A stretch of 64,000 nucleotides of DNA from Candidatus Woesearchaeota archaeon (GCA_016219865.1 JACRKF010000033.1:1960-65959); one strand, 5' to 3'. Counted from the stretch's first letter, positions 8,881 through 37,554 are shown. Made by a program: numbers and translations. Notes: a model not told the origin generated them from the letters alone.

Positions 8881-11800
8881 TCATCCCCTGCCATACACCA
8901 AACTGTAACTATTCTTGCTAGGTCTTATCTCATATCCTTCTCCAGGTTCAAAGCAGGCAAAGTTTCCTGACCATAGTCCTGTTGTTGCGCTATATTGCGC
9001 ATATTCATATCTTGCAGATGTTGTGTTGTAATGATAAATTCTATCACCTGTTGCAGGATTTGCAGGAGAAACGAAAATTGCTGAGAAATTGCATTGTTGT
9101 ATTGCAGAGTAATAACCAAACATATTTATTTCAGCAGAGGTTGTATTCCCCGCAGCATTTGTTGAAGCTGCAATCGAAGTTGTATAATTGTTTAATGGAA
9201 CTTCTCCAACTAATGTGATATTATATGCAGTTGCAACAGGAGAAAATGCATAGGATCTTCCATATTCAAATAAAGTAAAATCGCCAAGCCATCCAGAACC
9301 TGTAAAAAACTGTGAAAGCATTGCTGTTTTTGAAGTTGTATTATAAGAATAAATAATATCATTCTCTGAAGCAGAAGTTAAATTAGAAATATTAAGATCA
9401 TTGACAGTAATAGGCAATGAAATAAGATTCAATTGTATTCCCGCAGTTGGATTGCCAGCTGCTGCTTTAATTAATACATTGAATTTTGCAGCAGTAATAT
9501 TTGTTAGATTATAATTTGTGCCATTTGCTGCAGCAACACGATAAAATCTCTTGTCAACATCTCTTGCATCATTATCTATGTAATATAATTGTGCTGCTGC
9601 GCTTATTGTTGCATTTGCTGTCGGAAGCGCTGCAGCAGAGAGATTGAGGACATAGGATGCATTCTCTGAAAAAAATAATTTATACTGAGAAGCATCTTTA
9701 GCTGAATCCCAAGATATATTAATTGAGTTATTTGCAAGCTTTTTGATTGTAAGATTGCCAGGCATAAATGGTTTGACATCTGTTGAATTAAATATTGTTG
9801 TTGTATTTGCTGCTGTTTGATTGATAAAATTAGTTTCATTGCATATAATATTGTAATTATATGTTGCAGCTCCAACAAATGTTCTGTTGTATTCAAACAA
9901 TGCTTTTGTTGCATTATACATCATATTCGCAGTCACATCTGTAAACTGGATGCTGCAATTTGCAGTAGTAATTGGTGTTTTTGAAGTCACATTTGTGTAA
10001 TTTGCAAAAAAGTTTGCTATTTGATTTTCATATGTTGCGCCAAGACGATAAGGCGCAGCATCTTGCGTTGAATCCCAAGTAATTAATGAAGCATTTTCTC
10101 GTGCAGTAATATTAGCTAATCCTATTGTATAAAAAGTAAGATTTGTTGCAGTTGCTGTAATTATTGTGCAGCCATCCGCGGCAGAATTGCAAACAGAACC
10201 ATTTTTCATAGGCACTGGATTTGCATAGCCGGTATTGTATAATGAAAATGTTATGTTGCTATTTAATGTGCTGTGCAGATGTGAATTATTAAACAGGATA
10301 TTATTCCTGCTGATGTTTGCATTTTTATCAAAATCTTGAAATGCAGCAACCGCAAAATCATTAAATATTATTTTCCCATTCGATGTATTCTCAAGAATAA
10401 AGTAGGATGTATTATATAATGATGGAATAACAAGTGGATTTGATGTTATTCCATTAAATGTGTTTATTTGTGGTGAAGCATTTAATCCAGCAGAGATTAC
10501 TAATGAAAATGGCTGTGAACCTTGAGCAATATTATACGCTGAGACATTAACTTGATAACTTCCAGTTTGTGTATTGTTAGTATTAATAATAACCTGCTCA
10601 ACTGTATTTCTATCATCTGAGGACGCATTAAATGGAAATAAAAAGTTATTGCCAAGAAATTGCGTTCCATTTGGTGCTGTTGCAATCAGATTAAGATCAT
10701 TCACTAATGAAATTGCTGCATTTGCTGTTCCTTTGTAATCTGTCCAGACTAAAGTTATTTTTATTGGAGTTGATGCATTAACAACTGTAAAATTGTAAGT
10801 TGAAGATTGACCTGTTGTCAATTCAGTGCTATTATCAATATACACAAGATATCTTGATCCTGATGGAATTAATGTATTAGTCATATTTACTCTGCCCCAT
10901 CCGCTTGTATTGCTTGGAAATCCATAGCTTAGCTCTTGGGCGCCATTAATTAGTGTTGCTTTAAGCAATGCTCCAGAAACATTATTGTAGAATTTGTTGA
11001 GCATGAAATCCTGACGCAACAACACAAGCATGCCTGCTGCAGAAGGTGTTGCCATGCTTGTGCCTGAGCAAGTAGAATAATTGCCATTTGAAGAAAATGC
11101 GGAATTGCAAGATGGACTTCCTGAGCTGATTACAGTTGATTTTGTTGAAACAACATTTGTGCCAATTACAACAACATCTGGTTTTGTCCTGTTATCAGCA
11201 GCTGGTCCAAGACTGCTTGTCGATGAGATTAAAGCAGGATTTCCTGAACTTCTGCTGCTTTGAAGGTTGCCAACAGAAACTGCATTTTTCGCAGTTGCTG
11301 GATAAAATACTGTGTTTGCGCCAGAACCGCCAGAATTTCCTGCTGCAACAATTAATAATGCATCTTTTCTGTTCCACATAAAATCATCAACAGTTACAGC
11401 TAGTGATTCATACGCATTAGTATCGCCGCCATAACTATTGCTATGCACTCTAGCGCCATCTAAATATTGATTATGAAGAATTGTTTTATATGTTGATGTT
11501 GTTCCTAAATAAATTGATCGTGAACCATCATCATCACCTGCTGCATAGAATGAGATATTGGCAGCATATGCCATTCCTTTAAATTGACCAGCAGATAATG
11601 TGCCATTTCCAGCAGCAGATCCTGTTACGTGCGTGCCATGGCCATTTAAATCATTTGGTGAAGAACAACTAGCGCCGCTTAATGCGCAAACTGTATTGTT
11701 AGTTTTAATATTGACAATACGATTATCAAAATCCAGCAAGATATCATTTAATACAGAAAGATTATCAACACCAGTATCTAAACCAGTATCTAGTATGCCA

Positions 11801-12600
11801 ATCACTTGGTTTTTTCCATTAAGATTAAGAAAATTCCATACAGGAACAACCTCATGAGTTTGCGCAACCAAATCATTCAATACATGCACTGGTGAAGGAG
11901 CATCAATAATCTGAACTTCATCAACAGCAGAAATTTGTTGAATATTCTCTTGCGCAGTTTTTATTCGTATTACTTCATTATCAGCAGCTATTATCTCTAA
12001 ACCATTAACCTCTTTTAATTTTTCTGCAACTAATGCTGAATTTCCATCTTCATAAAGATAAAGATCAAGTGTAACTTTATTATTTTTGTCTGGAACAATT
12101 GTTGCAATTGTTTCTGTGTTCAATTTATACTCTGGGTTGTAGTCAATTATTGCTTTTACAAATTCAAATGTTTGTATTTTGTTTAAGTTTACTGTTGGTA
12201 TTTTCACAATAAATGAATTCTGGGGAATATATGAATATATTTTAACATCATATGTTTCCAATGCCTTTTTCCATGAATCTCTAACAGGACCGGCAAATTG
12301 AAGAACATAAAAAGCTTCGCTTTTATAAAAGACTTCCTCGCTGCGCTCGTCGTCTTTTATTTCATTAATAATTAGCGGTTGCTGTTTTTGTTGTTCAGTA
12401 ATTGTCTGCGATTTAAAATAAATATTAGCATCAGCTTTTTTATATTCTTCTGGATGATATTCAGTAAGTGCTGTTTTAACAGCATTATATTGCTTTATTT
12501 CTTGTTTATACGCAAAAGAGAATAAACTAATTATAGTTATAAGTAATAGAACTGCAACTATTGCTGCTAACCCAACTTTTTTCATAATAAAATCATTCAT
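8881..12600 (-). CDS. Secreted subtilisin-like serine protease (peptidase S8) with a very long Asn/Thr/Ser-rich C-terminal stalk
   Basis: N-terminal signal anchor. Catalytic triad motifs VIGILDTGLD (Asp), HGTHVTGSAAG (His), GTSMATPSAAGMLVLL (Ser) and oxyanion AAGNSGG. The ~700 C-terminal residues carry dozens of N-x-S/T sequons. Confidence 0.85.
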   Translation of the reverse strand: MNDFIMKKVGLAAIVAVLLLITIISLFSFAYKQEIKQYNAVKTALTEYHPEEYKKADANIYFKSQTITEQQKQQPLIINEIKDDERSEEVFYKSEAFYVLQFAGPVRDSWKKALETYDVKIYSYIPQNSFIVKIPTVNLNKIQTFEFVKAIIDYNPEYKLNTETIATIVPDKNNKVTLDLYLYEDGNSALVAEKLKEVNGLEIIAADNEVIRIKTAQENIQQISAVDEVQIIDAPSPVHVLNDLVAQTHEVVPVWNFLNLNGKNQVIGILDTGLDTGVDNLSVLNDILLDFDNRIVNIKTNNTVCALSGASCSSPNDLNGHGTHVTGSAAGNGTLSAGQFKGMAYAANISFYAAGDDDGSRSIYLGTTSTYKTILHNQYLDGARVHSNSYGGDTNAYESLAVTVDDFMWNRKDALLIVAAGNSGGSGANTVFYPATAKNAVSVGNLQSSRSSGNPALISSTSSLGPAADNRTKPDVVVIGTNVVSTKSTVISSGSPSCNSAFSSNGNYSTCSGTSMATPSAAGMLVLLRQDFMLNKFYNNVSGALLKATLINGAQELSYGFPSNTSGWGRVNMTNTLIPSGSRYLVYIDNSTELTTGQSSTYNFTVVNASTPIKITLVWTDYKGTANAAISLVNDLNLIATAPNGTQFLGNNFLFPFNASSDDRNTVEQVIINTNNTQTGSYQVNVSAYNIAQGSQPFSLVISAGLNASPQINTFNGITSNPLVIPSLYNTSYFILENTSNGKIIFNDFAVAAFQDFDKNANISRNNILFNNSHLHSTLNSNITFSLYNTGYANPVPMKNGSVCNSAADGCTIITATATNLTFYTIGLANITARENASLITWDSTQDAAPYRLGATYENQIANFFANYTNVTSKTPITTANCSIQFTDVTANMMYNATKALFEYNRTFVGAATYNYNIICNETNFINQTAANTTTIFNSTDVKPFMPGNLTIKKLANNSINISWDSAKDASQYKLFFSENASYVLNLSAAALPTANATISAAAQLYYIDNDARDVDKRFYRVAAANGTNYNLTNITAAKFNVLIKAAAGNPTAGIQLNLISLPITVNDLNISNLTSASENDIIYSYNTTSKTAMLSQFFTGSGWLGDFTLFEYGRSYAFSPVATAYNITLVGEVPLNNYTTSIAASTNAAGNTTSAEINMFGYYSAIQQCNFSAIFVSPANPATGDRIYHYNTTSARYEYAQYSATTGLWSGNFACFEPGEGYEIRPSKNSYSLVYGRG

Positions 12601-12748: not shown

Positions 12749-13273
12749 ATGGAAGCAAAACTGTCCATATTGCAGCCTTTTTTCAAAAAGTCAGGGGAAG
12801 CATTCCATATCAGAGAAGTTGCTAAACTTACTGGTATAAACCATACAACTGTCAGAAAATATCTGCAGGAGATGGTTAAAGAGAATATTCTGGCTATAAA
12901 AGAAGATAAACTCTATGATATGTATATAGCATCACATTCTCTTGCATTTCATAATATACAGCTATATTATATATTAGAAAGTGTGCGAAAATCCAAGTTT
13001 CTTGCAGATATTGAAAAAAACGATAAAGATGCTGCAGTTGTCTTATTAAATTCTTTTAAATCTGATGATTCAATAGAACTATGTGTTATCTATCAGAAGA
13101 ATAATGAATATTCAGTGAAAGAATTAGAAAAATATTTTGGCAAGAAAATAGTTATGCACTATCATAATGCAAAGAAATTTCATAGTTATCTAAAGAATGA
13201 TGCATTGTTATTTCAACACATCTTAAATGGCATTGTTATCAAAGGCAAGATTACAGTTGCTGATTTTTTATGA
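12749..13273 (+). CDS. Winged-helix (HTH) domain protein, putative transcriptional regulator
   Basis: N-terminal HIREVAKLTGINHTTVRKYLQEMV helix-turn-helix. It is the first gene of a co-directional six-gene island. Its start codon sits in the palindrome ACTTCCAATGGAAGC. Confidence 0.45.
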   Translation: MEAKLSILQPFFKKSGEAFHIREVAKLTGINHTTVRKYLQEMVKENILAIKEDKLYDMYIASHSLAFHNIQLYYILESVRKSKFLADIEKNDKDAAVVLLNSFKSDDSIELCVIYQKNNEYSVKELEKYFGKKIVMHYHNAKKFHSYLKNDALLFQHILNGIVIKGKITVADFL

Positions 13274-13284
13274 ACGGAGTGAAT
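13271..13284 (+). promoter_or_regulatory. 14-nt element TGAACGGAGTGAAT flanked by TTTTTTA / AAAAAAA, 7 nt upstream of the ATG at 13291
   Basis: Read directly; overlaps the stop codon of the preceding gene. Confidence 0.4.
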
Positions 13285-13290
13285 AAAAAA

Positions 13291-14442
13291 ATGGATAAGA
13301 AAGCAATCAAATTAACAAGCGAGGCATTGATTGAAGCTGTATTGATTACAATTGTAATTATAGCATTTGCTTTCTACATTAGTTCATTAAGAGAAGACAC
13401 ATTAATTGAAAAGACAGCTATTATTAGAGAATTATCAATGCTTGCAAATACAGTGCAGGCAAGCCCTCAAGATGCGCTTGTAATATATAATAAAAACAAT
13501 CTCAACAAATATCATTTTTCATTTAAAGAGAATTATGTGCAGATTAAACAGCAGGATTATGCAACAGTATTATATCCTTATTACACAGATATGATGCTTT
13601 CAATGCTGCTGCTGGATATAGAAAAAAAAGATCAACTTGTATTCTCTAGTTTCAAAGATAGTTTTATAATTTCTCCTGAAACAGTTGTTGGCTTTTCTTC
13701 GCAAAGAGGAGATAGTTTCAATCCAGCTGCTGCATCAGGTGGCATAGTTATTCAAAACAATCAGCAAAAAGATCCGCAATTAGCAGCAAGCTTTGCTAAT
13801 TGTCCGCTTATAAAATCAACAGTTGCATTGCAGACAATTGTCTTAGATTCAGGTAAAGGAGATTATATTGCAATGCCTGATGAGACCCAAGAAGTATTTG
13901 TAAAAGATTTTGGCGTGCAGAATAAAGCTCTTGGTACAAGCGAGCATGAACTTACTATGAAAGCTGTTATTTTATTAGAGACAGCATTAAGATTAAAAGT
14001 TAAGAACACACTCCTCAAAAAAACAAGAACGCAGAATGAAGATGAAAGTTTTTCTTATTCTGAGAGGTTGCAAAGATTTGATGCAGATGACAATCTTGTA
14101 ATAAGCATCCGTATGTATCAGGCGCAAGAGACTGAGAATAAGATTACCTTATATATATTAGCAGGAAAAAATGAATTGCAGAATCAAAAGATTGCATGTT
14201 TATTGATGAACGAATTGCAAGAAAAGTTATCAGGATTAACGCATAAAATTGAGATACGTTATCTTGCAGAAACAGATGATAGTTATCCATTATTAGAAAA
14301 GAACAGCAAAGAAAATGATAATTTAGCTGTTTTATTAGAGCTAGGCAATATTAACAATAAAGATAATGCTTTGTACAGCCAATTAGATGCTGCTGTTGAT
14401 GCGATAGCTGCAGCAGTTGCTGCATATAACAATGATAGATAA
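13291..14442 (+). CDS. Hypothetical membrane-anchored protein (KKA-type N-terminus)
   Basis: Start reassigned from 13270 to the ATG at 13291, because 13271–13284 is the recurrent 14-nt upstream element. N-terminus MDKKAIKLTSEALIEAVLITIVIIAF (basic + TM). Confidence 0.5.
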   Translation: MDKKAIKLTSEALIEAVLITIVIIAFAFYISSLREDTLIEKTAIIRELSMLANTVQASPQDALVIYNKNNLNKYHFSFKENYVQIKQQDYATVLYPYYTDMMLSMLLLDIEKKDQLVFSSFKDSFIISPETVVGFSSQRGDSFNPAAASGGIVIQNNQQKDPQLAASFANCPLIKSTVALQTIVLDSGKGDYIAMPDETQEVFVKDFGVQNKALGTSEHELTMKAVILLETALRLKVKNTLLKKTRTQNEDESFSYSERLQRFDADDNLVISIRMYQAQETENKITLYILAGKNELQNQKIACLLMNELQEKLSGLTHKIEIRYLAETDDSYPLLEKNSKENDNLAVLLELGNINNKDNALYSQLDAAVDAIAAAVAAYNNDR

Positions 14443-14462
14443 GAATAATTAAAGATGAAAAG

Positions 14463-15089
14463 ATGAATAAAAGACAAATGAACCAAAAAATGAATATTTT
14501 TCATGAAAGAAAAGATAGAAAAAAAGCTTTTGCCTATTTTCAGATTATTTTTGCATTTTATAGGATATTTGTATTGATGTTGGTTGTCTTATCTATTGTT
14601 ATGATCACAAAATTATTTATTAAAGTAACATTTGACACGCAAAAAGCAGAGATGGAACTATTTAAAGAACAATTATTATACTCTAAAGATGGTATTTCGT
14701 TGTACGACAGGGAAACCCAGCTATTATCTCCTGGTGTTATTGATTATAATCTTTTAAAGAATAAAGCATTATTTGAAAGCAAATTATTGCAGGGATTTTA
14801 CTTTAAAGACAAACCTCTTATAGCAGCAAAGCTTGAATTTTCTCTTCCATCTAATGCTGATGAAACTAGTACGGATTATGAAGAATTTATTCCAATCTAT
14901 TATCATGAAGATTATTTTAAACAATTATCAGTGCTTGCAAATACAAAGTTTCATGGAGCAGGTGGAGCAAAGATGATCCAAAGAGAAACTCCTGTATTAA
15001 TTAAGAAAATAGTTGTAGAGAATAACATTGCAGTTGAAAAATATATTCCAGCAGATTTAACAATCACAATTGTCAGCTCAAATAGTTAA
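14463..15089 (+). CDS. Hypothetical membrane-anchored protein (KKA-type N-terminus)
   Basis: ...RKKAFAYFQIIFAFYRIFVLMLVVL TM after a basic stretch. Co-directional with its neighbours. Confidence 0.45.
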   Translation: MNKRQMNQKMNIFHERKDRKKAFAYFQIIFAFYRIFVLMLVVLSIVMITKLFIKVTFDTQKAEMELFKEQLLYSKDGISLYDRETQLLSPGVIDYNLLKNKALFESKLLQGFYFKDKPLIAAKLEFSLPSNADETSTDYEEFIPIYYHEDYFKQLSVLANTKFHGAGGAKMIQRETPVLIKKIVVENNIAVEKYIPADLTITIVSSNS

Positions 15090-15114
15090 TTAGAAAGATA
15101 ACAATAAAGAATAG

Positions 15115-15681
15115 ATGATACTTATGAAAAGGAAAAATAAAGAAATATTCTTTGCAAAAAGAATTTTTTGCAAAAAAGCTGCAACACCATCGCAGATATT
15201 AATAGACTTTTGGGCTGCGCTAATCATTGTATTGATTCTGGCAACATTCTTTTTTATTTTATATGTCTCTCAAGGCAATATGGGTGTTGTAATCAAAGCG
15301 CAAGCAGCTGAGTTCGAGACTAATGATGAATTGCTTTATCTTTTGCAGTCTCCTGTCGTTATTGGCAATAAATCAATGAGCTTTTCTGAAGCAATTGCAG
15401 TTTCAGTGCATAAAGATGATTTTGTTGAACTTGAAAAAGCATTTGATCAAATAGGAGTATCAATTAGATTCAATAACTGTATTGACATTACTCTTGAATA
15501 TTCTGGCAAGAAAAAATCAATTCCTGCTGTGAATAATTGTGAAAGATATGCTGAATATGAACACAACACTGAAAAGATCTACATAAGTAAAGCAGAACTG
15601 CCATCTTTAGATGGTGCAATTATCAGTGTTGCTTATTCAATCAGTAAGATAATCCCGGAATATAGATATGGAAATGAATAA
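15115..15681 (+). CDS. Hypothetical membrane-anchored protein (KKA-type N-terminus)
   Basis: ...CKKAATPSQILIDFWAALIIVLILATFFF; 188 aa. Confidence 0.45.
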   Translation: MILMKRKNKEIFFAKRIFCKKAATPSQILIDFWAALIIVLILATFFFILYVSQGNMGVVIKAQAAEFETNDELLYLLQSPVVIGNKSMSFSEAIAVSVHKDDFVELEKAFDQIGVSIRFNNCIDITLEYSGKKKSIPAVNNCERYAEYEHNTEKIYISKAELPSLDGAIISVAYSISKIIPEYRYGNE

Positions 15682-15683
15682 AC

Positions 15684-17864
15684 ATGAAAAAAATAAATAA
15701 AAAATCACAATTGTTTATGATATTGTTAGTTTTTGTTACATTGACGACTGTCATTTCTGTATTCTTAGTGCTTTCAGAGAAAAGAGCAGATGTTAAAAAT
15801 TATTTAGGAGAAGAAAGCATGAATCTTATTAGTGGATATCAAGAAGAGCAGAAATTACTGCATGCAATTCAATTGCAGGCAAGATTTGCATATTATCAAT
15901 CTGTTTACGATCTTGCATTAGCTGGAGGTGCATCAACTGAAGGAGCTGCTGCAAATAACTGCGGTAAATATCGTGGATTTGTAAATTATTACAATGATCC
16001 TGAGTTTCAGCAATGCTTGCCTTTGGATCCAGAGAAAGAATTAATTCTGCTGATGAACAAAGAGATGAAATTTACTGAAACAGGAATTAGTAACAGCGAA
16101 GTTACTTCTGTTTACAGCGCTGAGGTAAAAGATAATTCAGTTATTGGCAAAGCAAATGGCTCAATTGCATATACTTATGACACTGCAAATAAAGTATTAA
16201 ATCTTGGTTCAATTGAAATCAAACAATTATCTCCAGGAGAATACGCGCAATTGCATAATTATGGAACTGCTCCAGGCACTCAAGGAAATAGTGGCGTAAA
16301 AGAATATCCAGTATGCGATAAGACAGAAGATGTAATCATTGATCTTTCTCAAGGCAAAGAAAAGAAACTTGAAGAAATTGGCTTAGGAAAAATATGGGTG
16401 CCAGCGCAAGCATTATGTGGGGGAGAATTTCCAGTTTTTATAATGCTTCATGGTCATGATGCTAATCCTGCGCAGTATTATGTTGGAGAAAGTTCAAAGT
16501 CAAGAATTGATAGCAGTATTAAACAATTAATAGCTGATAAAAAAGTATATCCTGTAATCTTAGCTGCGCCGATTGGACGTGTAAATAAGATTAATGGTGA
16601 TTTAGTTGATCCATGGCCTGCTGACCAGTTTGATATTGCTGATTATATTGCAAAGATTAAAACTGTGTTGCAGCAGCAGAATAATAAACTAACTGCTGGA
16701 AAAGTTGGAATCATTGGGCATAGCGCAGCAAATTGTTATGCAGGTGGTTTAAGAACTGCTGTCAGCAAATATGATTTTTATTTTGTCGGTTCAGCTGATG
16801 GAACCTGCGGTTCAAAAGATGGCGCTGTTGGCAGCAATAATTATGCAAAAACAATCTCTCAAAGAATCAGCAATAAAGATGCAATTTATGTTTTGATGCA
16901 CAGAAATAGTGATTCAGGAGATAAATCATCTGAAACATTTATGGCGGAAAACAGTATTGATGACTCAGCAGATGCAATTGCAAAAGAGAATTATGTTTCT
17001 GTTGTAAAGAAAAATGATAAAGAATATTATCGATATTTGTTGGATCCGCAAAAATATGGACATATGGCAGTTCCAAAATTGATGACAATGGAAGTTTTGC
17101 AGCGATTCTTCACATTAGAAAAAGTTGGAGGATTTGCTCCTTATGCTGCCATATCTCAAGCAGCGCCTAATGGTTGTAAAAGAACAATATTTAATAGAGA
17201 TAGTGAATCAATTGGAACAGTTAATTGTGGTGCATTAAAAAATGCTGTAAGTTTTGCCGCCGAGCGCGAATATTATAAATCTGATCATGATTCTCAGAAA
17301 AGATATGCAACTGTTGAATTAGTTAATTTCATTGAGGATATTGGTTGTGTCTTAACTGCAAAATATGGTTCACAAGGGAAAATTGCTGTAGGACAAACAA
17401 GTTATGAATATGGCGGGAAATTATATCTTCATGGAGACAGCGGAAATGCGCATTCTTCGCATCAAAGTGGAAGAGATGCGGATATTGGATTGTTCTTCAG
17501 AAATGAGAAACAAGAATTGATAAGTAAACAAACTGCAATGGTTGATACAAAGACAAATATTGTAGATTCGCGTTTTGACTTGGACGCTAATTGGTTATTT
17601 GTAAAAGAGTTTGTTAAACATGATCTGGCAGATATCATTATTATTCATGGGGCATTAGAAGATGCGCTTATTGCTTATGCTGAACAACATAATGAGGACA
17701 AACAATTGATTGAAAAAGCAAAACAAATAATGGTTGGTGGATATGGGGAGTTAGGGTATGATCACAGACACCATTATCATATCAGGATTAAATGTCCGCA
17801 TGGAGATAATTTATGTGAAAAGAAATACAATAAATGTGATAATTATATTGCTCAGGCGAAATAA
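15684..17864 (+). CDS. Membrane-anchored multidomain protein with a C-terminal MepA-like (peptidase M74 / LAS-family) murein DD-endopeptidase domain and a central putative alpha/beta-hydrolase-like region
   Basis: C-terminus HGDSGNAHSSHQSGRDADIGLFF and DHRHHYHIRIKCPHGDNLCEKK closely match the MepA zinc-ligand blocks (GGHASHQTGLDVDI; HRAHMHVRLRCP..LEC). The central part has FIMLHGHD and IIGHSAAN, which is esterase-like. N-terminus is MKKINKKSQ + TM. Confidence 0.55.
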   Translation: MKKINKKSQLFMILLVFVTLTTVISVFLVLSEKRADVKNYLGEESMNLISGYQEEQKLLHAIQLQARFAYYQSVYDLALAGGASTEGAAANNCGKYRGFVNYYNDPEFQQCLPLDPEKELILLMNKEMKFTETGISNSEVTSVYSAEVKDNSVIGKANGSIAYTYDTANKVLNLGSIEIKQLSPGEYAQLHNYGTAPGTQGNSGVKEYPVCDKTEDVIIDLSQGKEKKLEEIGLGKIWVPAQALCGGEFPVFIMLHGHDANPAQYYVGESSKSRIDSSIKQLIADKKVYPVILAAPIGRVNKINGDLVDPWPADQFDIADYIAKIKTVLQQQNNKLTAGKVGIIGHSAANCYAGGLRTAVSKYDFYFVGSADGTCGSKDGAVGSNNYAKTISQRISNKDAIYVLMHRNSDSGDKSSETFMAENSIDDSADAIAKENYVSVVKKNDKEYYRYLLDPQKYGHMAVPKLMTMEVLQRFFTLEKVGGFAPYAAISQAAPNGCKRTIFNRDSESIGTVNCGALKNAVSFAAEREYYKSDHDSQKRYATVELVNFIEDIGCVLTAKYGSQGKIAVGQTSYEYGGKLYLHGDSGNAHSSHQSGRDADIGLFFRNEKQELISKQTAMVDTKTNIVDSRFDLDANWLFVKEFVKHDLADIIIIHGALEDALIAYAEQHNEDKQLIEKAKQIMVGGYGELGYDHRHHYHIRIKCPHGDNLCEKKYNKCDNYIAQAK

Positions 17865-17866
17865 AA

Positions 17867-18961
17867 ATGAAAAATAATCATCAAATAAAAAAAATAAGCA
17901 GGCATATGGTCTTAGTGTCAGCCATACTTTTATTTTCCATAGTTATATTTTTATCTCCTGTTGTTTCCGCAGCGCCGCAGTTATTGATCAGCATAGATAA
18001 TGAGAATAATCTTGAAGATTTCCAAGTGATTGCAGACAATGACTATTATGGCGGGAAATATTATCCTTTGCTTACTGAAGAATATGGGGAAGAAATACTG
18101 ATATCGCCTGAGAAGTTTCATTATAGAGTTATACTAGACAATATAGAAATTTCAAAACTAAATGAAAGATTTGCATTAGGATTCAGTCCTAAAACTGCAA
18201 CTATGGAAATCTTTGATGATAAGATATTTGATAATAATAAAGCAATCATCACTAAACAACTTTCATTCTGCAACAACAACAATATTTGTGAACCTTGTGA
18301 AGATTCTGAGTGCAATCTCATGGAATCTTCTTTGACATGCAATGATTGTAAGTCTGGCAGCGCAGATTTTATTTGTGATTTAGTTTATGATGGAATTTGT
18401 GATCCTGATTGCGAGAATAAAGACAAAGATTGCAGTAGTTGTAAAGAAAAAGCAAACGAAGAAGCAAATAATTGTTATGCTTATGCTGAAGAGACTGAAT
18501 GTCTTGAAGAATATAGCGGAGAAACTTGTTTCTTTGGCAAGAGCTGCGCTGAAGGTGATGGCATAGCAATAAAAAATACTTTGTGCTGCCCAAACAGTTA
18601 TTGCATAACTTCTTTTTTTTCAATGAATGAAAAAAAAGAAATTGAAAAGATAAAAGAAAAACAAGATGAAGAAAAAGAGATAAAATTCATGAACCAAGTT
18701 GCAACAAACCAACAGCAATCATTTACAATTTATTTAGTATTTATCATAATATTAATAATTACTATAATATTATTATCTATTTATTTCATTAGAAAAATGT
18801 ATAGGTCAAAGATGCTTGTTATAGAAATCCAGCGATTAAAGAACAGATACAGTTATGCCGAGATTAAAACTTATTTAGAAAAACAAGGATATAAAAAAGA
18901 AGATATTGATTTAGCAATACAGCAGCATTATTTGTATGATAAGAATGTTAAAAATCACTAA
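17867..18961 (+). CDS. Cys-rich surface protein with an N-terminal signal/TM and a C-terminal TM anchor plus cytoplasmic tail
   Basis: N-terminal hydrophobic segment. Dense Cys module CNDCKSGSADFICDLVYDGICDPDCENKDKDCSSC...CCPNSYC. C-terminal TM IYLVFIIILIITIILLSIYFI followed by a basic tail. Confidence 0.5.
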   Translation: MKNNHQIKKISRHMVLVSAILLFSIVIFLSPVVSAAPQLLISIDNENNLEDFQVIADNDYYGGKYYPLLTEEYGEEILISPEKFHYRVILDNIEISKLNERFALGFSPKTATMEIFDDKIFDNNKAIITKQLSFCNNNNICEPCEDSECNLMESSLTCNDCKSGSADFICDLVYDGICDPDCENKDKDCSSCKEKANEEANNCYAYAEETECLEEYSGETCFFGKSCAEGDGIAIKNTLCCPNSYCITSFFSMNEKKEIEKIKEKQDEEKEIKFMNQVATNQQQSFTIYLVFIIILIITIILLSIYFIRKMYRSKMLVIEIQRLKNRYSYAEIKTYLEKQGYKKEDIDLAIQQHYLYDKNVKNH

Positions 18962-19000
18962 TCGTGCTTTTTAACATTTCTTTGAAAAAGGATTGAAAAC

Positions 19001-22000
19001 ATGAACTATGGTTTCGGAGCAAAAACAAGAAAAGTATTGCAGTTTTATTTAGTTTACGCTTTATTCTTATTGTTGAGTGCTGCTTTTGTCACAGCAGACA
19101 ATATTAATTTTGCTATAATTACAGATACAAATGTTGGCATTGGGAGCATTGTATTAGCAGAACAAACTGATGCAGTTGTTAATTCAATTATTCATTCTCC
19201 GCAAAATATTGATTTTGTTATTCATCTTGGCAATATGGTAGCAGGAAGTTCTGCTGCAACAGCTGATGATGCTGAAAAGATGTGGAATGAATACAATCAG
19301 AAAGTTATAAAACAATTGCAGGATAAAAATATAGGACTGCTTTTAATTGCTAATAAACAAGATAAAGCAAATGCTGCATTAGAAAGTAATTATATCAATT
19401 TATTTAACTCTGCAACTCACGATTTTGTCTCTTCAGCAGCTGCAAAAGATAATTATGCATTTGTATACAAGAACAATCTTTTTATTGTTTTGCAGTATGA
19501 CAAAAATATTGACAAAAGCTGGTTAAAAGAACAGTTAGAAAATAATTATCAATCTGTTGACCATGTGTTTGTATTTTATCCAAACGAATTTGTTGCAATT
19601 GCAAAAGAAAAAACAACCTCCTTAGTCTGTAATAATTGCAATGACTTATTTTCTGCGCTTGATGCTTACAGCAATAAATTTGGCAACAAGGTAACATTAT
19701 TTACAGCATCATCTCAAGTTTATTACAAAGGAAATTACAAAGGATATGATATTGTCTCAGTTGGCGCAATTGACGAACCGCATACAATAATTGGAACTAA
19801 TGAACGGCAAAAAGCTGTGTATGCAGTTGTTAAAATAAATGATAAGGATACTGTTATTTATGGTGTTGAAGAGCAATTTGATCATTGGTTTTACGAATGC
19901 AGAAACCTGCCATTGATCCAGCCAGCAGGCTATGACAAATTTAAAGGAATGATTGCAGGATGCCAGCAGATAACAGGAGATAAAAAAACAAATGATATTA
20001 TCCAGTCACCCTGTATTATTCCTCCGCAATTTGAAGGATATGATCAATTTGCAAAAGCAAGAGGATTGATCGTTGAAAGTTTCAATGAAAAACATCCAGA
20101 ATATGATTCAATTATATTAGAAGCATCGCAAAGGTTTAACATGCCATTTGAATTGATTAAAGCAATTGTCATGGAAGAATCAGGTGGAAATCCTTTTCCA
20201 TCAAAACAATCTCTTGGTGGAACAACCTGCAATGAAAATGGATGTTTATGCAATCAACAAGGATTTTGTGGATTGATGGGAACAGGATTAAATTATGTTT
20301 GCTTAACTCCTTCTGAATGCAATAAACAAGCATTTATGGACGGAAACCCTCGTGACCAAATCTTTGCAGGAACCTCAATCCTCCGCAGAATAATAGACAA
20401 AAAACAATGCAAACTTGATAATAAGAATCTGCTTGATGATGTTAATAATCCTCAATATATCATGCATTTATTTGGCTGCTATGGAAAAGGTTCTGCTGAT
20501 AATAAAGAATATTGTGAAAGAGAAAATAAACCATGTGGTTATCCTGTTTTCCTCCGCAGAGCAATGCAAAAAAGTGCTAAACCTCTTGAAAAGATTACTC
20601 CTGCGGATATTGCTGCTGTAACTACAGATGCAAACGCAATAGTTCATAGTTACATAAAATATATTAAATTAAATCTCTGTAAAAATGGAGTCATCAATGA
20701 CCAAATAGCGCATCCAATTATTCAAAGTACTGCAGCGCAAAGCCAATCTGCATTAGCTAAAGTTGGAATTGCTCAAGGTGTTTCAACAGTCTATTATCTA
20801 ACACCTAACTTCAGAGTAAACATGGATAATGCATTCACAGATTATAAAACAATTAGAGAAGCAGCAACGCAATTAGTAACTGAAGTTAATGACTGCAGAA
20901 GTCGTGGCAATACTGTTGAGAATTGTTTTGCTATTAATATTAATAATCAAAAGTATAAAACGCTTGGAATTACAGTTGATAATCAATTATGCAAAGAAAG
21001 TCAGCTGGATAAATTCATCTATGATTCAATTGAGAATATGAAAACATGTTCAAGATTATCATTAAAAAAATGTCAGATGATTATCCCGCAGCAATATCCT
21101 GGAGAGGCAAAGCTTGATGAGAATGCAATTGCATTTGTTTTCTCATCTGTTGATGGCAAAACAATTCTTATTGAGGCATCTGTCAACAATATATTGCATA
21201 CTGCGGATAAAATAACTGGAAGCTTGGCATTATTTGAAGATTTTATAGCGCAGCCGGAGTTTAAAGATATGAAGAATGCAACAATTCTGCTGAAATATGA
21301 TAAATATCAATCTAAACACAATATATTATCATTTAATGATAATCATAATTTTGTTTCAAAAGACAAAATTATTCCTTTTGTTTTCAATCAGGATAATAAA
21401 TTAACTTTCTTTAGTGATAAGTTAGCGCAGCCATATTTTTCTTTTGCTGAAGCGCAGCAGCAGGAAATAGATGACATGCAAAAACTAAAAAAAGGTTTTA
21501 AGTTGTGCTATTTAAGCAAGAATACATTGTATGCAAAAGGTATGTTTGACACTTCTCCTGAAGATATTGCTTATTATGAGAATAATTTGCGTTATCCAAC
21601 AAAATTAAGAGCTCTTGTCTATAGATTTGCATTATTATTTGATGTTTCTCAGGCAATTCCTCATACAGCTATTGCAGCAGCTGACTTGCAGAAAGCAGAG
21701 AAAACTGTGCTTGTAAAGTTTGATAAACCAACTACTCCTGTTAAATATTATACATTATTTTTTTCTAACGAAAAAAATATATTGGAAAAACCTGCAAATG
21801 AGCTTAAAGATAAAGAAAATGTCCAGAAGATTATTCTTGATCCTAGCGCGGCAAAAACAGTAAGCGTCGCAGATTATTCTTTGCTTGGAGATGAAATAGT
21901 TATTGGCAAACTTTATTATAACATTCAGGAGAATATGTATTTCTTAGCAGTTGCAGTTGATAATGAATTAAAGCAATATTATTTTACTATTGCTGCAATG

Positions 22001-22480
22001 AGTGTTAATAATAAAGAACCGAATAATATTGATGCTGATCAAAAGCTAAATGTCATTGAAGGATTTTCAATTGATGATTTGCCTCCAGCATCGCCGGAAA
22101 TTGTTATTATTGAAGGTGCTTCTATTTCAGCAGCAGATATAAATCAAGAAGAGATCGAAAGCAATGTTGCATTAGCTGCGCCTCTTCAAGGAAGCATCGC
22201 AGTTGCTTGGGATAGTGTTGCAGATAATAGTAATCTTAATTATCTTCTTGCTGATTTAGATGGATATTTTGTTGTAATGCATGAGGATAAAGTTAATACT
22301 TCATTAAAGCTTACTAAAGATAATTGCAATACTGCAAATAATTGTCAATTTGTTTCTGCAGTATTGCCAGACAACAAAGATAGATTTGAAACAGTTTTTG
22401 CTGGATTAGATGATGCAAATAATTATATGGTTGTTGTTTATGCTGTTGATACTTCTGGAAATTATTTAGAAATTAAATAA
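19001..22480 (+). CDS. Large secreted protein (1159 aa) with a lytic-transglycosylase (SLT/lysozyme-like) domain
   Basis: N-terminal signal peptide. Residues ~370–470 read EASQRFNMPFELIKAIVMEESGGNP...GFCGLMGTG...DGNPRDQIFAGTSILRRI, which matches the family-1 LT motifs (catalytic E-S, G-L-M-[QG], downstream NP...I..G..IL) around a Cys-rich insertion. Confidence 0.5.
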   Translation: MNYGFGAKTRKVLQFYLVYALFLLLSAAFVTADNINFAIITDTNVGIGSIVLAEQTDAVVNSIIHSPQNIDFVIHLGNMVAGSSAATADDAEKMWNEYNQKVIKQLQDKNIGLLLIANKQDKANAALESNYINLFNSATHDFVSSAAAKDNYAFVYKNNLFIVLQYDKNIDKSWLKEQLENNYQSVDHVFVFYPNEFVAIAKEKTTSLVCNNCNDLFSALDAYSNKFGNKVTLFTASSQVYYKGNYKGYDIVSVGAIDEPHTIIGTNERQKAVYAVVKINDKDTVIYGVEEQFDHWFYECRNLPLIQPAGYDKFKGMIAGCQQITGDKKTNDIIQSPCIIPPQFEGYDQFAKARGLIVESFNEKHPEYDSIILEASQRFNMPFELIKAIVMEESGGNPFPSKQSLGGTTCNENGCLCNQQGFCGLMGTGLNYVCLTPSECNKQAFMDGNPRDQIFAGTSILRRIIDKKQCKLDNKNLLDDVNNPQYIMHLFGCYGKGSADNKEYCERENKPCGYPVFLRRAMQKSAKPLEKITPADIAAVTTDANAIVHSYIKYIKLNLCKNGVINDQIAHPIIQSTAAQSQSALAKVGIAQGVSTVYYLTPNFRVNMDNAFTDYKTIREAATQLVTEVNDCRSRGNTVENCFAININNQKYKTLGITVDNQLCKESQLDKFIYDSIENMKTCSRLSLKKCQMIIPQQYPGEAKLDENAIAFVFSSVDGKTILIEASVNNILHTADKITGSLALFEDFIAQPEFKDMKNATILLKYDKYQSKHNILSFNDNHNFVSKDKIIPFVFNQDNKLTFFSDKLAQPYFSFAEAQQQEIDDMQKLKKGFKLCYLSKNTLYAKGMFDTSPEDIAYYENNLRYPTKLRALVYRFALLFDVSQAIPHTAIAAADLQKAEKTVLVKFDKPTTPVKYYTLFFSNEKNILEKPANELKDKENVQKIILDPSAAKTVSVADYSLLGDEIVIGKLYYNIQENMYFLAVAVDNELKQYYFTIAAMSVNNKEPNNIDADQKLNVIEGFSIDDLPPASPEIVIIEGASISAADINQEEIESNVALAAPLQGSIAVAWDSVADNSNLNYLLADLDGYFVVMHEDKVNTSLKLTKDNCNTANNCQFVSAVLPDNKDRFETVFAGLDDANNYMVVVYAVDTSGNYLEIK

Positions 22481-35054: not shown

Positions 35055-35310
35055 TTAGATCACAATCTTGCTCTTGTCCAGATTCATCTTTGTACTTGCC
35101 ATTATCTGCTAATCCATCACCGTCGCTATCATCAGGAGAATTTGCTGGAACTAAGCAATCTTGCTGCGAAGTTGTTTTTTCCTTTATATTTGTCAGTGAT
35201 TTCATAAAATCCTTAACAGAACCTGAAGAAATCATAATCAGTAAGAATCCAAACACTAATGAAACAATCATTATTACAAGCCAAAATGGCATTTCTGCTT
35301 TTTTATCCAT
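35044..35310 (-). CDS. Small pilin-like protein with a C-terminal Asp-rich calcium-binding-like motif
   Basis: Real start taken as MDKKAEMPFWLVIMIVSLVF (track start 35358 is a TTG). C-terminus DDSDGDGLADNGKYKDESGQEQDCD resembles a TSP3-type DxDxDG repeat. Confidence 0.45.
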   Translation of the reverse strand: MDKKAEMPFWLVIMIVSLVFGFLLIMISSGSVKDFMKSLTNIKEKTTSQQDCLVPANSPDDSDGDGLADNGKYKDESGQEQDCDLNAP

Positions 35311-35365
35311 AAAAAACATCCTCCCTTTAGTAGTCATTACTCCTATGTTAAAAAACAATAAAAAA

Positions 35366-35379
35366 TGAACGAAGTGAAT
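35366..35379 (+). promoter_or_regulatory. 14-nt element TGAACGAAGTGAAT inside the 9-bp inverted repeat CAATAAAAA...TTTTTATTG, with no downstream plus-strand gene
   Basis: 27-mer nearly identical to the 5701–5727 copy. Lies inverted ~56 nt upstream of the minus-strand gene starting at 35310. Confidence 0.35.
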
Positions 35380-35391
35380 TTTTATTGTTTT

Positions 35392-35856
35392 TTAGTTATT
35401 TAAACAACATACTTCTCCTTTATTGTCGCAATTAGTATATAATACATAATTAATTTTTCCATCTGTTGATTTGCAGCTTTCTTTTTTTATGCAGCTTCCT
35501 TGTTGTGATTCACAAGCAAGATAGCAGCATACTTGTTCACTTGCTGAGTTATCTGTAGTTGTGCTATCAGAACCATCTGCAGATTTTAACGGATTTGTTT
35601 TTCCGCAGGATAATGCTAATGTTTGTCCTTTTTGATCACTGCATTCTGTTGAAGACATGCATTTGCCTTGTTTTGACTCGCAATCATTAAGGCTGTATCG
35701 AAATAGAGATGATTGTTTGCCAAATATAAATAACAATACAAAAAGAACTACTAATGCAAGTATTACAATCACAACTGTATTTATTGCTAAATCTGCTTTC
35801 TTATTTTTTTGGTTCATAGTTTCAACTCTTTTTTTACTATTGTATTTATTAATCAC
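35392..35856 (-). CDS. Small Cys-rich secreted protein with a duplicated CES-QG-C module
   Basis: N-terminal ...MNQKNKKADLAINTVVIVILALVVLFVL. Two copies of the module CESKQGKC...C...VCC / CESQQGSC...C...VCC. Confidence 0.45.
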   Translation of the reverse strand: MINKYNSKKRVETMNQKNKKADLAINTVVIVILALVVLFVLLFIFGKQSSLFRYSLNDCESKQGKCMSSTECSDQKGQTLALSCGKTNPLKSADGSDSTTTDNSASEQVCCYLACESQQGSCIKKESCKSTDGKINYVLYTNCDNKGEVCCLNN

Positions 35857-35901
35857 TTGTTTATTCTCATAGCTGCATTTTCTTTTTCAGCAATTACTGA
35901 T

Positions 35902-36462: not shown

Positions 36463-36481
36463 ATCCGCTTTTTTTTTATTT

Positions 36482-36613
36482 TTAGAAAAGATTTGCAATA
36501 AATTCACCTAATTTTCCTTTTGAAAGATATATTAAAGCTATGATTACAACTAGCATGATTAATGCGAAAATCATCATGACTATCCTAAATTCCATCTCTG
36601 CTTCTTTTTTCAT
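36482..36613 (-). CDS. 43-aa single-TM micro-protein (not in the ORF track)
   Basis: Manual translation gives MKKEAEMEFRIVMMIFALIMLVVIIALIYLSKGKLGEFIANLF. Preceded by TGAGGAGATTTTTTATTATG. Confidence 0.4.
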   Translation of the reverse strand: MKKEAEMEFRIVMMIFALIMLVVIIALIYLSKGKLGEFIANLF

Positions 36614-36627
36614 AATAAAAAATCTCC

Positions 36628-37527: not shown

Positions 37528-37554
37528 AAAAAACATCGCTCCGCTCGTTTCTTA

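Follow-up and report, generated by a model that had tools for sequence, protein, structure and literature searches.

What does a murein endopeptidase do in an archaeon, and why is it fused to a second hydrolase? The gene that raises this question occupies positions 15684..17864 (stop codon included) of the 64-kb stretch of DNA that we analyzed, hereafter the window; it lies on the + strand, as do all features below unless stated otherwise. The ORF list gives its product as 726 aa, which we describe as a tri-modular surface protein. The sequence is identical to the NCBI protein 'penicillin-insensitive murein endopeptidase [Candidatus Woesearchaeota archaeon]'. The host is archaeal, as seen from that protein name and from archaeal Nre, RPA and MJ0538-type genes in the window or in orthologous loci. 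The first-pass annotation of this DNA had proposed a fusion of an alpha/beta-hydrolase-like module with a MepA-type LAS metallopeptidase on an anchored protein. This was borne out: we confirmed that a membrane-anchored alpha/beta-hydrolase-fold serine-hydrolase module is joined to a MepA-type LAS metallopeptidase, with the Ser/Asp/His residues of the former and the zinc motifs of the latter conserved. The same architecture is found in related DPANN genomes, where that annotation had suggested looking for it (P0002, 68% identity; P0003, 50%; the distant P0004, about 31-35%).

The C-terminal M74 (MepA-type, LAS) zinc metallopeptidase domain (residues 498-726, 17175..17861) was recognized by Pfam, NCBIfam and PDB entry 1tzp. 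The match to PF03411 (E=1.2e-17; cut-off 25 bits) scores 64.8 bits and covers residues 509-715 and model positions 1-196 of 240. The NCBIfam model PRK09429 is matched with 69.8 bits against an equivalog cut-off of 272, so the domain is a family-level relative and not an orthologue of E. coli MepA, for which the same bond specificity cannot be assumed. Since only 196 of the 240 PF03411 positions are covered and the score lies far below the equivalog cut-off, the specificity may differ from that of MepA. LAS enzymes are defined by an H-x(3-6)-D and an H-x-H motif (PMC3927764). The first is present as H590-S-S-H593-Q-S-G-R-D598-A-D600 (17451..17483), aligned to HASHQTGLDVD of MepA, and the second as H694-R-H-H697-Y-H699 (17763..17780), aligned to HRAHMH. 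None of the four fusion proteins, P0004 at 35% identity among them, departs from the H593-x6-D600 block or from H694, H697 and H699; the metal ligands, on whose conservation the earlier reading depended, are thus kept. We gathered further M74 relatives, 950 in all, with a 4-sequence profile and compared the best 120. These are 225-403 aa long and either stand alone or are fused to LysM, in line with the earlier statement that MepA homologues are normally small, stand-alone enzymes, and the fusion described here is therefore atypical. Among the matches compared, M74 proteins from outside the Woesearchaeota share at most 35% identity with this domain, and the closest relatives that bear a name come from Myxococcota.

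The central domain (residues 206-485, 16299..17138) is an alpha/beta-hydrolase-fold serine-hydrolase domain. A full-length AF2 prediction with only three full-length homologues was unusable (pLDDT 35.6), and a domain alignment from the representative search was used instead; the resulting model of the central domain is confident and has the canonical beta-alpha-beta fold. A fold search with this model returned exclusively alpha/beta hydrolases, the closest being CE1 carbohydrate esterases, followed at lower rank by acylaminoacyl peptidases, DPP4/8, serine carboxypeptidases and a poly(aspartic acid) hydrolase. The central region thus has a hydrolase fold, the second point on which the earlier reading depended. 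No Pfam or NCBIfam model matches the 726-aa protein at E<=1 outside the M74 region, and a PDB profile search with the central domain gave esterase matches that are weak but consistent (best E=0.012), which together define a new sequence family within a known fold.

Conservation was counted in an alignment of 28 central-domain homologues, across which the Ser, His and Asp that the first-pass annotation had asked about are all conserved. The predicted nucleophile is Ser347 (16722..16724) in the elbow G-H-S-A-A, where Gly345 is kept in 27/28, His346 and Ser347 each in 26/28, and position +2 is A, G or S in 28/28. In the model it lies between strand 336-346 and the next helix, and its aligned counterpart in esterase 8z91 is the serine of GHSMGG. 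His460 (17061..17063; His in 27/28), the predicted catalytic histidine before the last helix, aligns with the His of the C-terminal catalytic region of the same esterase. For the acid there are two candidates: Asp413 (16920..16922; Asp in 27/28), which follows strand beta7 in the model, and Asp372 (16797-16799; D/E in 28/28) after beta6. We infer that Asp413 rather than Asp372 serves as the catalytic acid. The predicted triad S347, D413 and H460 then runs in the Ser-acid-His order, after beta5, beta7 and beta8 of the model secondary structure. An LHG motif after strand beta3 (His256-Gly257, 16449..16454), invariant in 28/28 and aligned with LLHG of feruloyl esterase 7xrt, is the predicted oxyanion-hole region. 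Cysteines are conserved as well (C351 in 28/28 and C375 in 26/28, with six more in the M74 part), which fits an extracytoplasmic, disulfide-bonded protein.

What bond would this domain cut? Its partners bear on the question. Among 40 other proteins that carry the central domain, the Pfam partners are M15_4 (6), Amidase_2 (5), GDSL (5), SLT (3), Muramidase (2), M74 (2), M15 (2), VanY and Hydrolase_2, so that peptidases and amidases are commoner than glycosidases. In several relatives the domain shares one polypeptide with a GDSL/SGNH domain, as in P0015, which combines SLT, GDSL and the central domain. A genome-locus search with a 5-sequence central-domain alignment found only two loci, both in Woesearchaeota.

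MurNAc O-acetylation blocks lytic transglycosylases and lysozymes. The central domain could accordingly be an O-acetyl-peptidoglycan esterase, in line with the O-acetyl/ester hydrolase that the first-pass annotation had suggested. By stripping the MurNAc 6-O-acetyl group it would let the cluster's lytic transglycosylase or muramidase cut the glycan, with cross-links left to the M74 domain; we hold this reading as a tentative possibility. It is compatible with CE1 carbohydrate esterases as the nearest structures, with a model secondary structure that, like that of polymer-acting esterases, lacks a lid or cap element, with the SLT-like protein encoded two genes downstream (see below) and with the fusion of the central domain to Muramidase or SLT in other proteins. 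The characterized peptidoglycan O-acetyl esterases of the Ape1 type have, to our knowledge, the SGNH fold, whereas the fold here is that of an alpha/beta hydrolase, and the domain is thus not a member of the Ape1 family. Moreover, where a GDSL/SGNH domain stands in the same polypeptide (5 of the 40 carriers, P0015 among them), that domain is the more obvious O-acetyl esterase, which makes a redundant role of the central domain less obvious. O-acetylation is no block to peptidases and amidases, and the commonest partners (M15_4, Amidase_2, M74, M15 and VanY) would act independently of de-O-acetylation.

The ester could also lie elsewhere in the envelope. Mycobacteriophage LysB, a cutinase-like esterase paired with a peptidoglycan hydrolase, is a precedent for a lipase, phospholipase or other envelope esterase that would combine wall cutting with damage to the envelope or membrane. 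The targets that we considered are bacterial membranes, lipoproteins, teichoic-acid D-alanyl esters and storage polyesters. A multi-layer attack of this kind would suit Woesearchaeota in which genes for peptidoglycan degradation occur together with genes for pore-forming toxins (PMC9723730). We nevertheless regard it as unlikely, as the best fold matches are carbohydrate esterases and not lipases and the model has neither a lid nor a hydrophobic cap. A viral fold library yielded generic esterase/lipase matches only (TM <= 0.44) and no LysB-like or endolysin-linked relative.

The lower-ranked fold matches raise one further option, namely that the central domain trims stem peptides as an alpha/beta-hydrolase-fold serine peptidase or amidase, which would make the protein a double peptidase. 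Acylaminoacyl peptidases, DPP4/8, serine carboxypeptidases and the poly(aspartic acid) hydrolase are all among the matches, and the central domain is often fused to other enzymes that act on stem peptides. However, these peptidases rank below the CE1 esterases, and alpha/beta-hydrolase-fold peptidases usually have a beta-propeller or cap domain, which is absent from the model here. We consider this option very unlikely.

The third module, which the first-pass annotation had overlooked, precedes the central domain. This extracytoplasmic N-module (residues 32 to about 190, 15777..16253) was delimited by the representative search and alignment A6. Its consensus reads IGxxQ...YQxxEKxLFYIDQSAKxAxxQxxYDLAxxGG...CGxYxGYxxW...CxP, with a conserved Cys93/Cys111 pair. 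No Pfam model matches it, and its profile found no relative among PDB sequences. About 100 proteins in the representative search carry it at their N-terminus, and the partner domains in 50 of these are SLT, M23, NlpC/P60, 3D, lysozyme, Amidase_2, M15, glucosaminidase and CHAP. Every named carrier of either the N-module or the central domain is from Woesearchaeota. The partner domains of both novel modules all belong to families of bacterial-murein hydrolases.

Is the fusion protein part of a larger set of wall enzymes? Judged from the sequence of the locus, the gene and its neighbors, including those for Amidase_3-like and SLT-like proteins, look like a conserved, tightly packed operon, with intergenic gaps of -4 to 39 bases and the same gene order on three other contigs (50-68% identity). 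The run begins with a putative regulator, a 174-aa HTH protein (12749..13273) with several weak winged-helix/HTH Pfam matches, whose gene overlaps the next by 4 bases and is conserved in loci L001/L004 and L002. It is followed by a 390-aa protein (13270..14442) with the pilin-like N-terminus KKA/IKLTSEALIEAVLITIVII (the slash marks the predicted cleavage site here and below) and an Amidase_3-like C-terminal part. The PF01520 match of this protein is sub-threshold (E=9e-5, 23 bits against a cut-off of 27) and is weak in the L001 orthologue too, and the protein has no sequence match in the PDB. Two small proteins with no Pfam match come next: one of 208 aa (14463..15089) with the N-terminus RKKA/FAYFQIIFAF, kept even in the distant cluster L005 (8797-9402, E=3e-15), and one of 188 aa (15115..15681) with the N-terminus CKKA/ATPSQILIDFWAALIIVLIL. 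Downstream of the fusion gene, the ORF list contains a Cys-rich protein of 364 aa (17867..18961) that combines a Sec-type signal with a TM segment at the C-terminus, and then a 1159-aa secreted protein (19001..22480) with an SLT-like (lytic transglycosylase) segment around MEESGGNP...GLMG. In L002 the latter two genes are fused, both matching a single ORF of 1428 aa.

The SLT assignment of the 1159-aa protein is transitive and not direct, since it runs through P0015: residues 322-463 match residues 20-150 of P0015 (E=1e-14), in which Pfam places SLT at 69-192. The isolated fragment matches Pfam SLT only at E=0.0075, and the full 1159-aa protein has neither a Pfam SLT nor a PDB match. As the neighbors gave no PDB or PHROG matches, their amidase and SLT calls are to be read as sub-threshold or transitive. 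A divergently transcribed gene for a 1239-aa S8 subtilase (8881..12600, - strand; PF00082, E=2.6e-40) adjoins the cluster in all orthologous loci. In the distant Woesearchaeota cluster L005, the same kinds of parts are present in shuffled order. The cluster is flanked by a pyrimidine-biosynthesis operon and by RPA/YdjM genes, an order kept in several genomes. We also weighed an origin from a phage or mobile element and rejected it: GC content shows no deviation, the neighboring proteins have no PHROG match and the genomic order is the same in several genomes.

How is the protein held at the surface? It starts with the basic stretch MKKINKKS followed by a hydrophobic helix (residues 9-31; the two together at 15684..15776). 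This N-terminus is a membrane anchor and a candidate class III (prepilin-like) signal peptide, with cleavage predicted after Ser8. The first-pass annotation had called an anchor from KKS and a transmembrane segment; the hydrophobic helix after KKS stands, and what had been missed is that the gene is the last in a run of four, at 13270..17864, whose products all start with prepilin-like [KR]K[GAS] and hydrophobic N-termini. A [K/R]-[G/A(/S)] site directly before the helix is present in the 726-aa protein as KKS/QLFMILLVF, and its orthologues have KKS/Q, KKA/G and KKG/M at the same place. In the products of the three genes upstream, and in all orthologues of these, the site reads KKA/ or KKG/. 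Among N-module homologues, A, S or G follows the last K or R in 66/83, with Q one position further on in 22 and M there in 13. Archaeal prepilin sites on record include KGQV, RAQI and RALS (PMC4371748); the sites listed there have G or A at -1, where the 726-aa protein has Ser.

These N-termini allow a bolder reading, in which Woesearchaeota would carry their enzymes against bacterial walls as pilin-like subunits that a prepilin peptidase processes and that are then built into a surface structure resembling a type IV pilus or a bindosome. It draws on the four genes at 13270..17864 (amidase-like, two small proteins, esterase-fold plus M74) and on about 100 other hydrolase proteins with an N-module. 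We consider it quite doubtful. No PilB/PilC-type assembly gene or prepilin-peptidase gene was found among the ORFs of the 64-kb window scanned with Pfam; many archaeal pilin genes are unlinked to assembly genes (PMC4371748). If it were true, a lytic appendage would bring a complete murein-cutting set to the wall of a bacterial host and could serve the archaeon in episymbiotic attachment to, or feeding on, bacteria, and the new alpha/beta-hydrolase family would be its dedicated wall-de-esterifying component.

Setting display on an appendage aside, we favor as reasonably probable that the 726-aa protein is an N-terminally anchored three-module surface hydrolase that a Woesearchaeota (DPANN) archaeon directs at bacterial cell walls. 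Its N-terminus and N-module would keep it at the surface of the archaeon, perhaps once a prepilin-type processing step has taken place. The M74 domain would cut D-Ala-meso-DAP type cross-links of bacterial murein, as MepA does, and the esterase-fold domain would remove an ester-linked substituent of the wall or envelope, either an O-acetyl or other glycan acyl group or an ester-linked envelope component. De-esterification would open the wall to the peptidase as well as to the operon's amidase-like and SLT-like enzymes. Murein synthesis is not expected in the archaeon, so the target would be the wall of a bacterial host, prey or neighbor, or wall debris. For the large extracellular murein lytic transglycosylases of Woesearchaeota and Pacearchaeota, binding or degradation of bacterial walls has been put forward (Castelle et al. 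2021, PMC8204110; Vigneron et al. 2022, PMC9723730), and killing of bacteria by archaeal peptidoglycan hydrolases has been shown (PMC12352652).

Two alternatives concern the target and the activity of the whole protein. A partnership of Woesearchaeota with methanogens has been suggested (as mentioned in PMC9723730), from which one could argue that the protein attacks a pseudomurein-walled methanogen host. With an anchor in the producer's own membrane, it might also remodel the archaeon's own envelope. M74/LAS enzymes act on murein peptides that contain D-amino acids, whereas pseudomurein, as far as we know, contains L-amino acids only and its known endoisopeptidases are cysteine peptidases. 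In addition, the partners of the novel modules are without exception families that act on bacterial murein, and only two of the surveyed archaeal peptidoglycan hydrolase homologues come from pseudomurein-making classes (PMC12352652). We therefore regard a target other than bacterial murein as highly improbable. Attachment has been suggested as one role of large transglycosylase-domain proteins (Castelle et al.; PMC8204110), and by extension one or both catalytic domains might be inactive and only bind the wall, the protein being an adhesin. This is barely credible, since the catalytic residues of both domains are kept in homologues down to 25-35% identity, which is not expected of binding-only relics.

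Woesearchaeota, like other DPANN archaea, are believed to depend on life on other cells. For bacterial hosts, the pointer in the literature so far has been the large lytic-transglycosylase proteins. To these the locus adds (i) a cross-link endopeptidase fused to a new serine-hydrolase family, (ii) two modules specific to the lineage, by which dozens of further wall hydrolases can be recognized, and (iii) a conserved operon whose enzymes together seem to address glycan, amide, cross-link and ester bonds. The genes are clonable candidates for asking whether Woesearchaeota lyse or tap bacteria, and with the module profiles (alignments A3 and A6) metagenomes can be searched for the whole enzyme set. 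In the design of enzybiotics, the new esterase-fold family may be worth considering as an accessory activity.

How does the protein compare with known systems? Like E. coli MepA (M74, PF03411, PDB 1tzp/1u10), it has HxxH...D...D and HxxHxH blocks that align residue by residue and conserved cysteines around the C-terminal motif (CP...C). MepA is a soluble periplasmic protein of 274 aa, whereas the M74 domain here is the C-terminal third of an anchored archaeal protein of 726 aa and lacks the last ~44 positions of the PF03411 model. With the CE1-type feruloyl and acetyl-xylan esterases and the 'putative esterase/esterase D' group (PDB 7xrt, 5vol, 1jt2, 7b5v; PF00756 group) the central domain shares only 10-17% identity. 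Unlike in that group, its elbow ends in Ala-Asn-Cys and not in Gly, Cys351 is invariant and Cys375 nearly so (probably forming a disulfide), there is an extra beta-hairpin, and the context is one of peptidoglycan hydrolases and not of plant-cell-wall enzymes. The analogy with Ape1 may be one of function, with a serine esterase preparing the murein glycan for attack by lytic enzymes, but Ape1 is characterized by an SGNH/GDSL fold with four conserved blocks, and in relatives of our protein GDSL domains stand separately beside the central domain.

The 'bindosome' proteins of Sulfolobus are large and are not pilins, yet have class III (prepilin-type) signal peptides (PMC4371748). The locus resembles this system in combining a large functional protein with a prepilin-like site ([KR]-[GAS] before the hydrophobic helix), at which cleavage is predicted here, and in having several such genes in succession. 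It differs in its cargo, which is hydrolases and not solute-binding proteins, and in having no PilB/PilC or prepilin-peptidase genes in the 64-kb window. The published work on archaeal peptidoglycan hydrolases (PMC8204110, PMC9723730 and PMC12352652) concerns GH23/SLT domains or modular hydrolases in general; the terms M74, MepA, endopeptidase, esterase and pilin were not found in these papers, which describe neither the fusion of M74 with an alpha/beta hydrolase nor the operon or the two new modules. The SLT proteins of PMC8204110 and PMC9723730 are nonetheless the nearest parallel in setting: they come from the same lineage, are predicted to be extracellular and have an inferred bacterial-murein target, and some of them carry the same N-module or central domain.

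The 726-aa product of the ORF at 15684..17864 (+) was recovered with the coordinates and length given in the first-pass annotation (start codon ATG), and the two strings quoted there, FPVFIMLHGHDA and VGIIGHSAANCY, are found at residues 249-260 and 341-352. An identical NCBI entry is named 'penicillin-insensitive murein endopeptidase [Candidatus Woesearchaeota archaeon]', and the archaeal gene content of the window includes an RPA-type OB-fold protein, archaeal Nre, SecY and ribosomal genes. At its N-terminus the protein carries MKKINKKS and then a stretch of 23 residues without charge, most of them hydrophobic. Its domain anatomy comprises (i) an N-terminal module (N-module; residues 32-~190), (ii) a central domain (residues 206-485) and (iii) a C-terminal M74 domain (residues 498-726).

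The central domain is matched by no Pfam, NCBIfam or PHROG model. A HMMER scan with residues 1-505 against 1.8 billion representatives returned two independent sets of relatives, one over residues ~206-490 and the other over ~1-165. From the former, 28 full-length copies were trimmed and aligned (A3) as input for structure prediction, which gave a model with a pLDDT of 90.9 and a pTM of 0.90. A Foldseek search of the PDB with this model bore out the hydrolase-like character first proposed for this region: it returned alpha/beta hydrolases only, headed by the ferulic acid esterases 5vol and 7xrt (E~5e-5), with esterase D/S-formylglutathione hydrolases, acylaminoacyl peptidases and DPP4 ranking below them. 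The A3 sequence profile also ranks 7xrt first (E=0.012) and places GHS and the C-terminal His opposite their counterparts in esterase 8z91. Conservation of a catalytic Ser/Asp/His set had been named as a check, and all three residues are retained: S347 (26/28) in a strand-helix elbow with G345 (27/28) and H346 (26/28), D413 after beta7 (27/28) and H460 before the last helix (27/28). H256-G257 (LHG after beta3) is present in 28/28 sequences, as is an acidic residue (D/E) at D372. The Ser-Asp-His order, the elbow and the HG motif are, as judged from alignment and model, those of the alpha/beta-hydrolase fold, and the domain is predicted to be a serine hydrolase of this fold belonging to a new sequence family. 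Cysteines are also conserved (C351, 28/28; C375, 26/28), consistent with a probable extracytoplasmic location.

The C-terminal domain matches PF03411 over residues 509-715 (E=1.2e-17, 64.8 bits; gathering score 25), covering model positions 1-196 of 240, so that the final part of the family model is absent. The NCBIfam MepA model matches with E=2.3e-19 and 69.8 bits, far below its equivalog cut-off of 272, and the structure of E. coli MepA (1tzp) is matched directly (E=5.7e-5). HSSHQSGRDAD (590-600) aligns to HASHQTGLDVD of MepA and HRHHYH (694-699) to HRAHMH. The counterparts of these motifs in MepA are its zinc ligands, reported by Marcyjaniak et al. (2004) to be His113, Asp120 and His211. 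LAS enzymes, MepA included, are defined by the motifs H-x(3-6)-D and H-x-H, and MepA cleaves D-Ala-meso-DAP bonds (PMC3927764). The M74-like ligands proposed earlier hold up in an alignment: H590, H593, D598, D600, H694, H697 and H699 are invariant in 4/4 known fusion proteins, including a homologue with only 35% identity (P0004). Predicted catalytic residues are conserved in both enzymatic domains, and the C-terminal domain is, on these matches, a real member of the M74/LAS peptidase family.

A profile search with the four M74 domains found 950 relatives. The best 120 of these are 225-403 aa long, carry PF03411 alone or with LysM and share at most 35% identity. M74 proteins are thus, as first assumed, usually small enzymes that stand alone, and the 726-aa architecture is atypical for M74. 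An N-terminal LysM with PF23473 is common among M74 proteins. Among the best 120 of 950, the nearest named relatives (at most 35% identity) are Myxococcota/Polyangiaceae, which are predatory or lytic bacteria. A search with the isolated 227-aa M74 fragment matched nothing, its parent protein included, so absences from this type of search call for caution; the four-sequence profile did not return the parent fusion proteins either.

Both other modules recur next to wall-degrading enzymes. The Pfam partners in 40 other carriers of the central domain are Peptidase_M15_4 (6), Amidase_2 (5), GDSL (5), SLT (3), Muramidase (2), M74 (2), M15 (2), VanY (1) and Hydrolase_2 (1). The N-module precedes the central domain in proteins ending in M74 (P0004), M15 (P0016) or GDSL (P0018, P0022); elsewhere we find Muramidase + central domain, with (P0005) or without (P0010) Amidase_2, central domain + Amidase_2 (P0009) or M15_4 (P0011), and SLT + GDSL + central domain (P0015). 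Partners of the N-module in 50 proteins include SLT (6), M23 (5), fn3 (5), NlpC/P60 (2), 3D (2), lysozyme-type domains, Amidase_2, M15, glucosaminidase, CHAP and Metallophos. The central domain and the N-module are therefore statistically associated with murein hydrolases. Every carrier of either module with a source name is a 'Candidatus Woesearchaeota archaeon', and the GTDB species set yielded two loci, again from Woesearchaeota. That the central domain is a putative O-acetyl-peptidoglycan esterase is a tentative reading, with which the CE1-like fold and the SLT and muramidase partners are compatible; however, the known enzymes of this activity are of the SGNH type, SGNH/GDSL domains adjoin the central domain in five relatives (one also with SLT), and peptidases and amidases are its most frequent partners. 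As alternatives for this domain, we consider a putative envelope lipase/esterase rather unlikely and a putative serine peptidase quite improbable.

The N-module has no Pfam match and no PDB relative. It stands at the N-terminus of ~100 representative proteins of 80-1449 aa in the HMMER scan, with the consensus IGxxQ...YQxxEKxLFYIDQSAKxAxxQxxYDLAxxGG...CGxYxGYxxW...CxP (alignment A6). In 66/83 N-module proteins, A, S or G occupies the position after the final K/R that precedes the hydrophobic helix; the position beyond it holds Q in 22 and M in 13. Sites of archaeal class III (prepilin-type) processing include KGQV, RAQI and RALS (PMC4371748), and the N-module N-termini, judged by sequence, have this form. 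Genes 13270, 14463, 15115 and 15684 and all their orthologues encode a basic N-terminal segment that closes with [KR]K[G/A/S], immediately ahead of a hydrophobic helix. This run (window 13270..17864; orthologues in L001 7571..12181, L002 7268..12229 and L005 8821..12292) comprises an amidase-like 390-aa protein (KKA/IKLTSEALIEAVLITIVII; NKKG/FELTVFTLIEGLLI in L002), the products of 14463 (208 aa; RKKA/FAYFQIIFAF) and 15115 (CKKA/ATPSQILIDFW), and the 726-aa protein (NKKS/QLFMILLVF, with Ser at position -1). The KKG/FELTVFTLIEGLLI of the L002 protein is reminiscent of type IV pilins at their N-terminus. Among the window ORFs scanned with Pfam, none was found to encode PilB, PilC or a prepilin peptidase. 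Genes 13270..17864 have the look of an operon whose prepilin-like products carry enzymes, which we offer as a lead.

Genes 12749-22480 share a strand, are spaced by -4, 20, 25, 2, 2 and 39 bases and encode, in order, a small HTH protein, the 390-aa protein (sub-threshold to Amidase_3: E=9e-5, 23 bits, cut-off 27), two small proteins of unassigned function, the 726-aa protein, a Cys-rich 364-aa protein and a 1159-aa secreted protein. Three other contigs (L001/L004, L002/L003; 50-68% identity) retain this order and also a divergent upstream S8 subtilase (1239 aa; 8881..12600, -), which holds the same position in all orthologous loci and may belong to the same extracellular degradative set. The cluster is a conserved operon. 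It is chromosomal; its GC (0.31-0.35) is like the remaining window, a PHROG search of it gave no match, and it is flanked by pyrimidine-biosynthesis and RPA/YdjM genes. The 364-aa (17867..18961) and 1159-aa (19001..22480) ORFs, separate in the window and L001, form a single 1428-aa ORF in L002 (12307..16593), reflecting a fusion or fission event inside the cluster. In the 1159-aa protein, an SLT-like segment (MEESGGNP...GLMG, residues ~370-420) is detectable only transitively: residues 322-463 align with the N-terminal, SLT-containing part of P0015 (E=1e-14), and the MEESGGNP fragment alone reaches only E=0.0075 against SLT. Its N-terminal ~300 residues are metallophosphoesterase-like (IITDTNVG...HLGNMV), with no significant Pfam match. 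Shuffled equivalents of the cluster occur in a distant Woesearchaeota locus (L005 5295..15772): Muramidase + central domain (1161 aa), a homologue of the 208-aa protein (E=3e-15), a 204-aa protein, N-module + Metallophos (719 aa), a TSP3-repeat protein and GH75-like + DUF459 + NlpC/P60 (783 aa). Unlike in the window's 1159-aa protein, Metallophos is fused there to the N-module. Elsewhere in the window, five consecutive ORFs (738, 154, 201, 302 and 255 aa; 32838..38322, -) lack any Pfam family, and for the 302-aa product the N-terminus gives a weak match (E=0.0012) to the hydrophobic beginning of the N-module profile. A 649-aa ORF (5725..7674, +; also in L002) combines amidohydrolase (dihydroorotase-like) and phosphoribosyltransferase domains within a pyrimidine-biosynthesis operon (carB-like, pyrB, pyrI, pyrD, pyrF) and is an apparent pyrC-pyrE fusion.

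We propose that the 726-aa protein would be placed outside the archaeal membrane, where the M74 domain would cut murein cross-links and the central esterase-fold domain would take an ester-linked group off the wall or envelope. Because the producer is a DPANN archaeon, the target would be bacterial. The M74 annotation in NCBI and, in outline, Woesearchaeota murein hydrolases were already known. New are (i) recognition of the central domain as a predicted alpha/beta hydrolase, catalytically intact and from a family not described before, (ii) the N-module and the repeated fusion of both modules to nearly every murein hydrolase class and (iii) the conserved operon with its run of prepilin-like N-termini. 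The architecture and the pilin-like lead are noteworthy; that DPANN archaea attack the walls of bacteria has, as a general idea, been published before. We found no mention of M74 or MepA in PMC12352652, of endopeptidase or pilin in PMC8204110 and PMC9723730, or of esterase in PMC9723730. The proposed wall-degrading role fits published suggestions that large extracellular transglycosylases serve Woesearchaeota and Pacearchaeota to bind or degrade the walls of bacteria (PMC8204110; PMC9723730), and also experiments in which archaeal peptidoglycan hydrolases killed bacteria (PMC12352652). The N-module proteins, in turn, show an N-terminal form similar to that of the Sulfolobus bindosome subunits, which are large non-pilin proteins with class III signals (PMC4371748).
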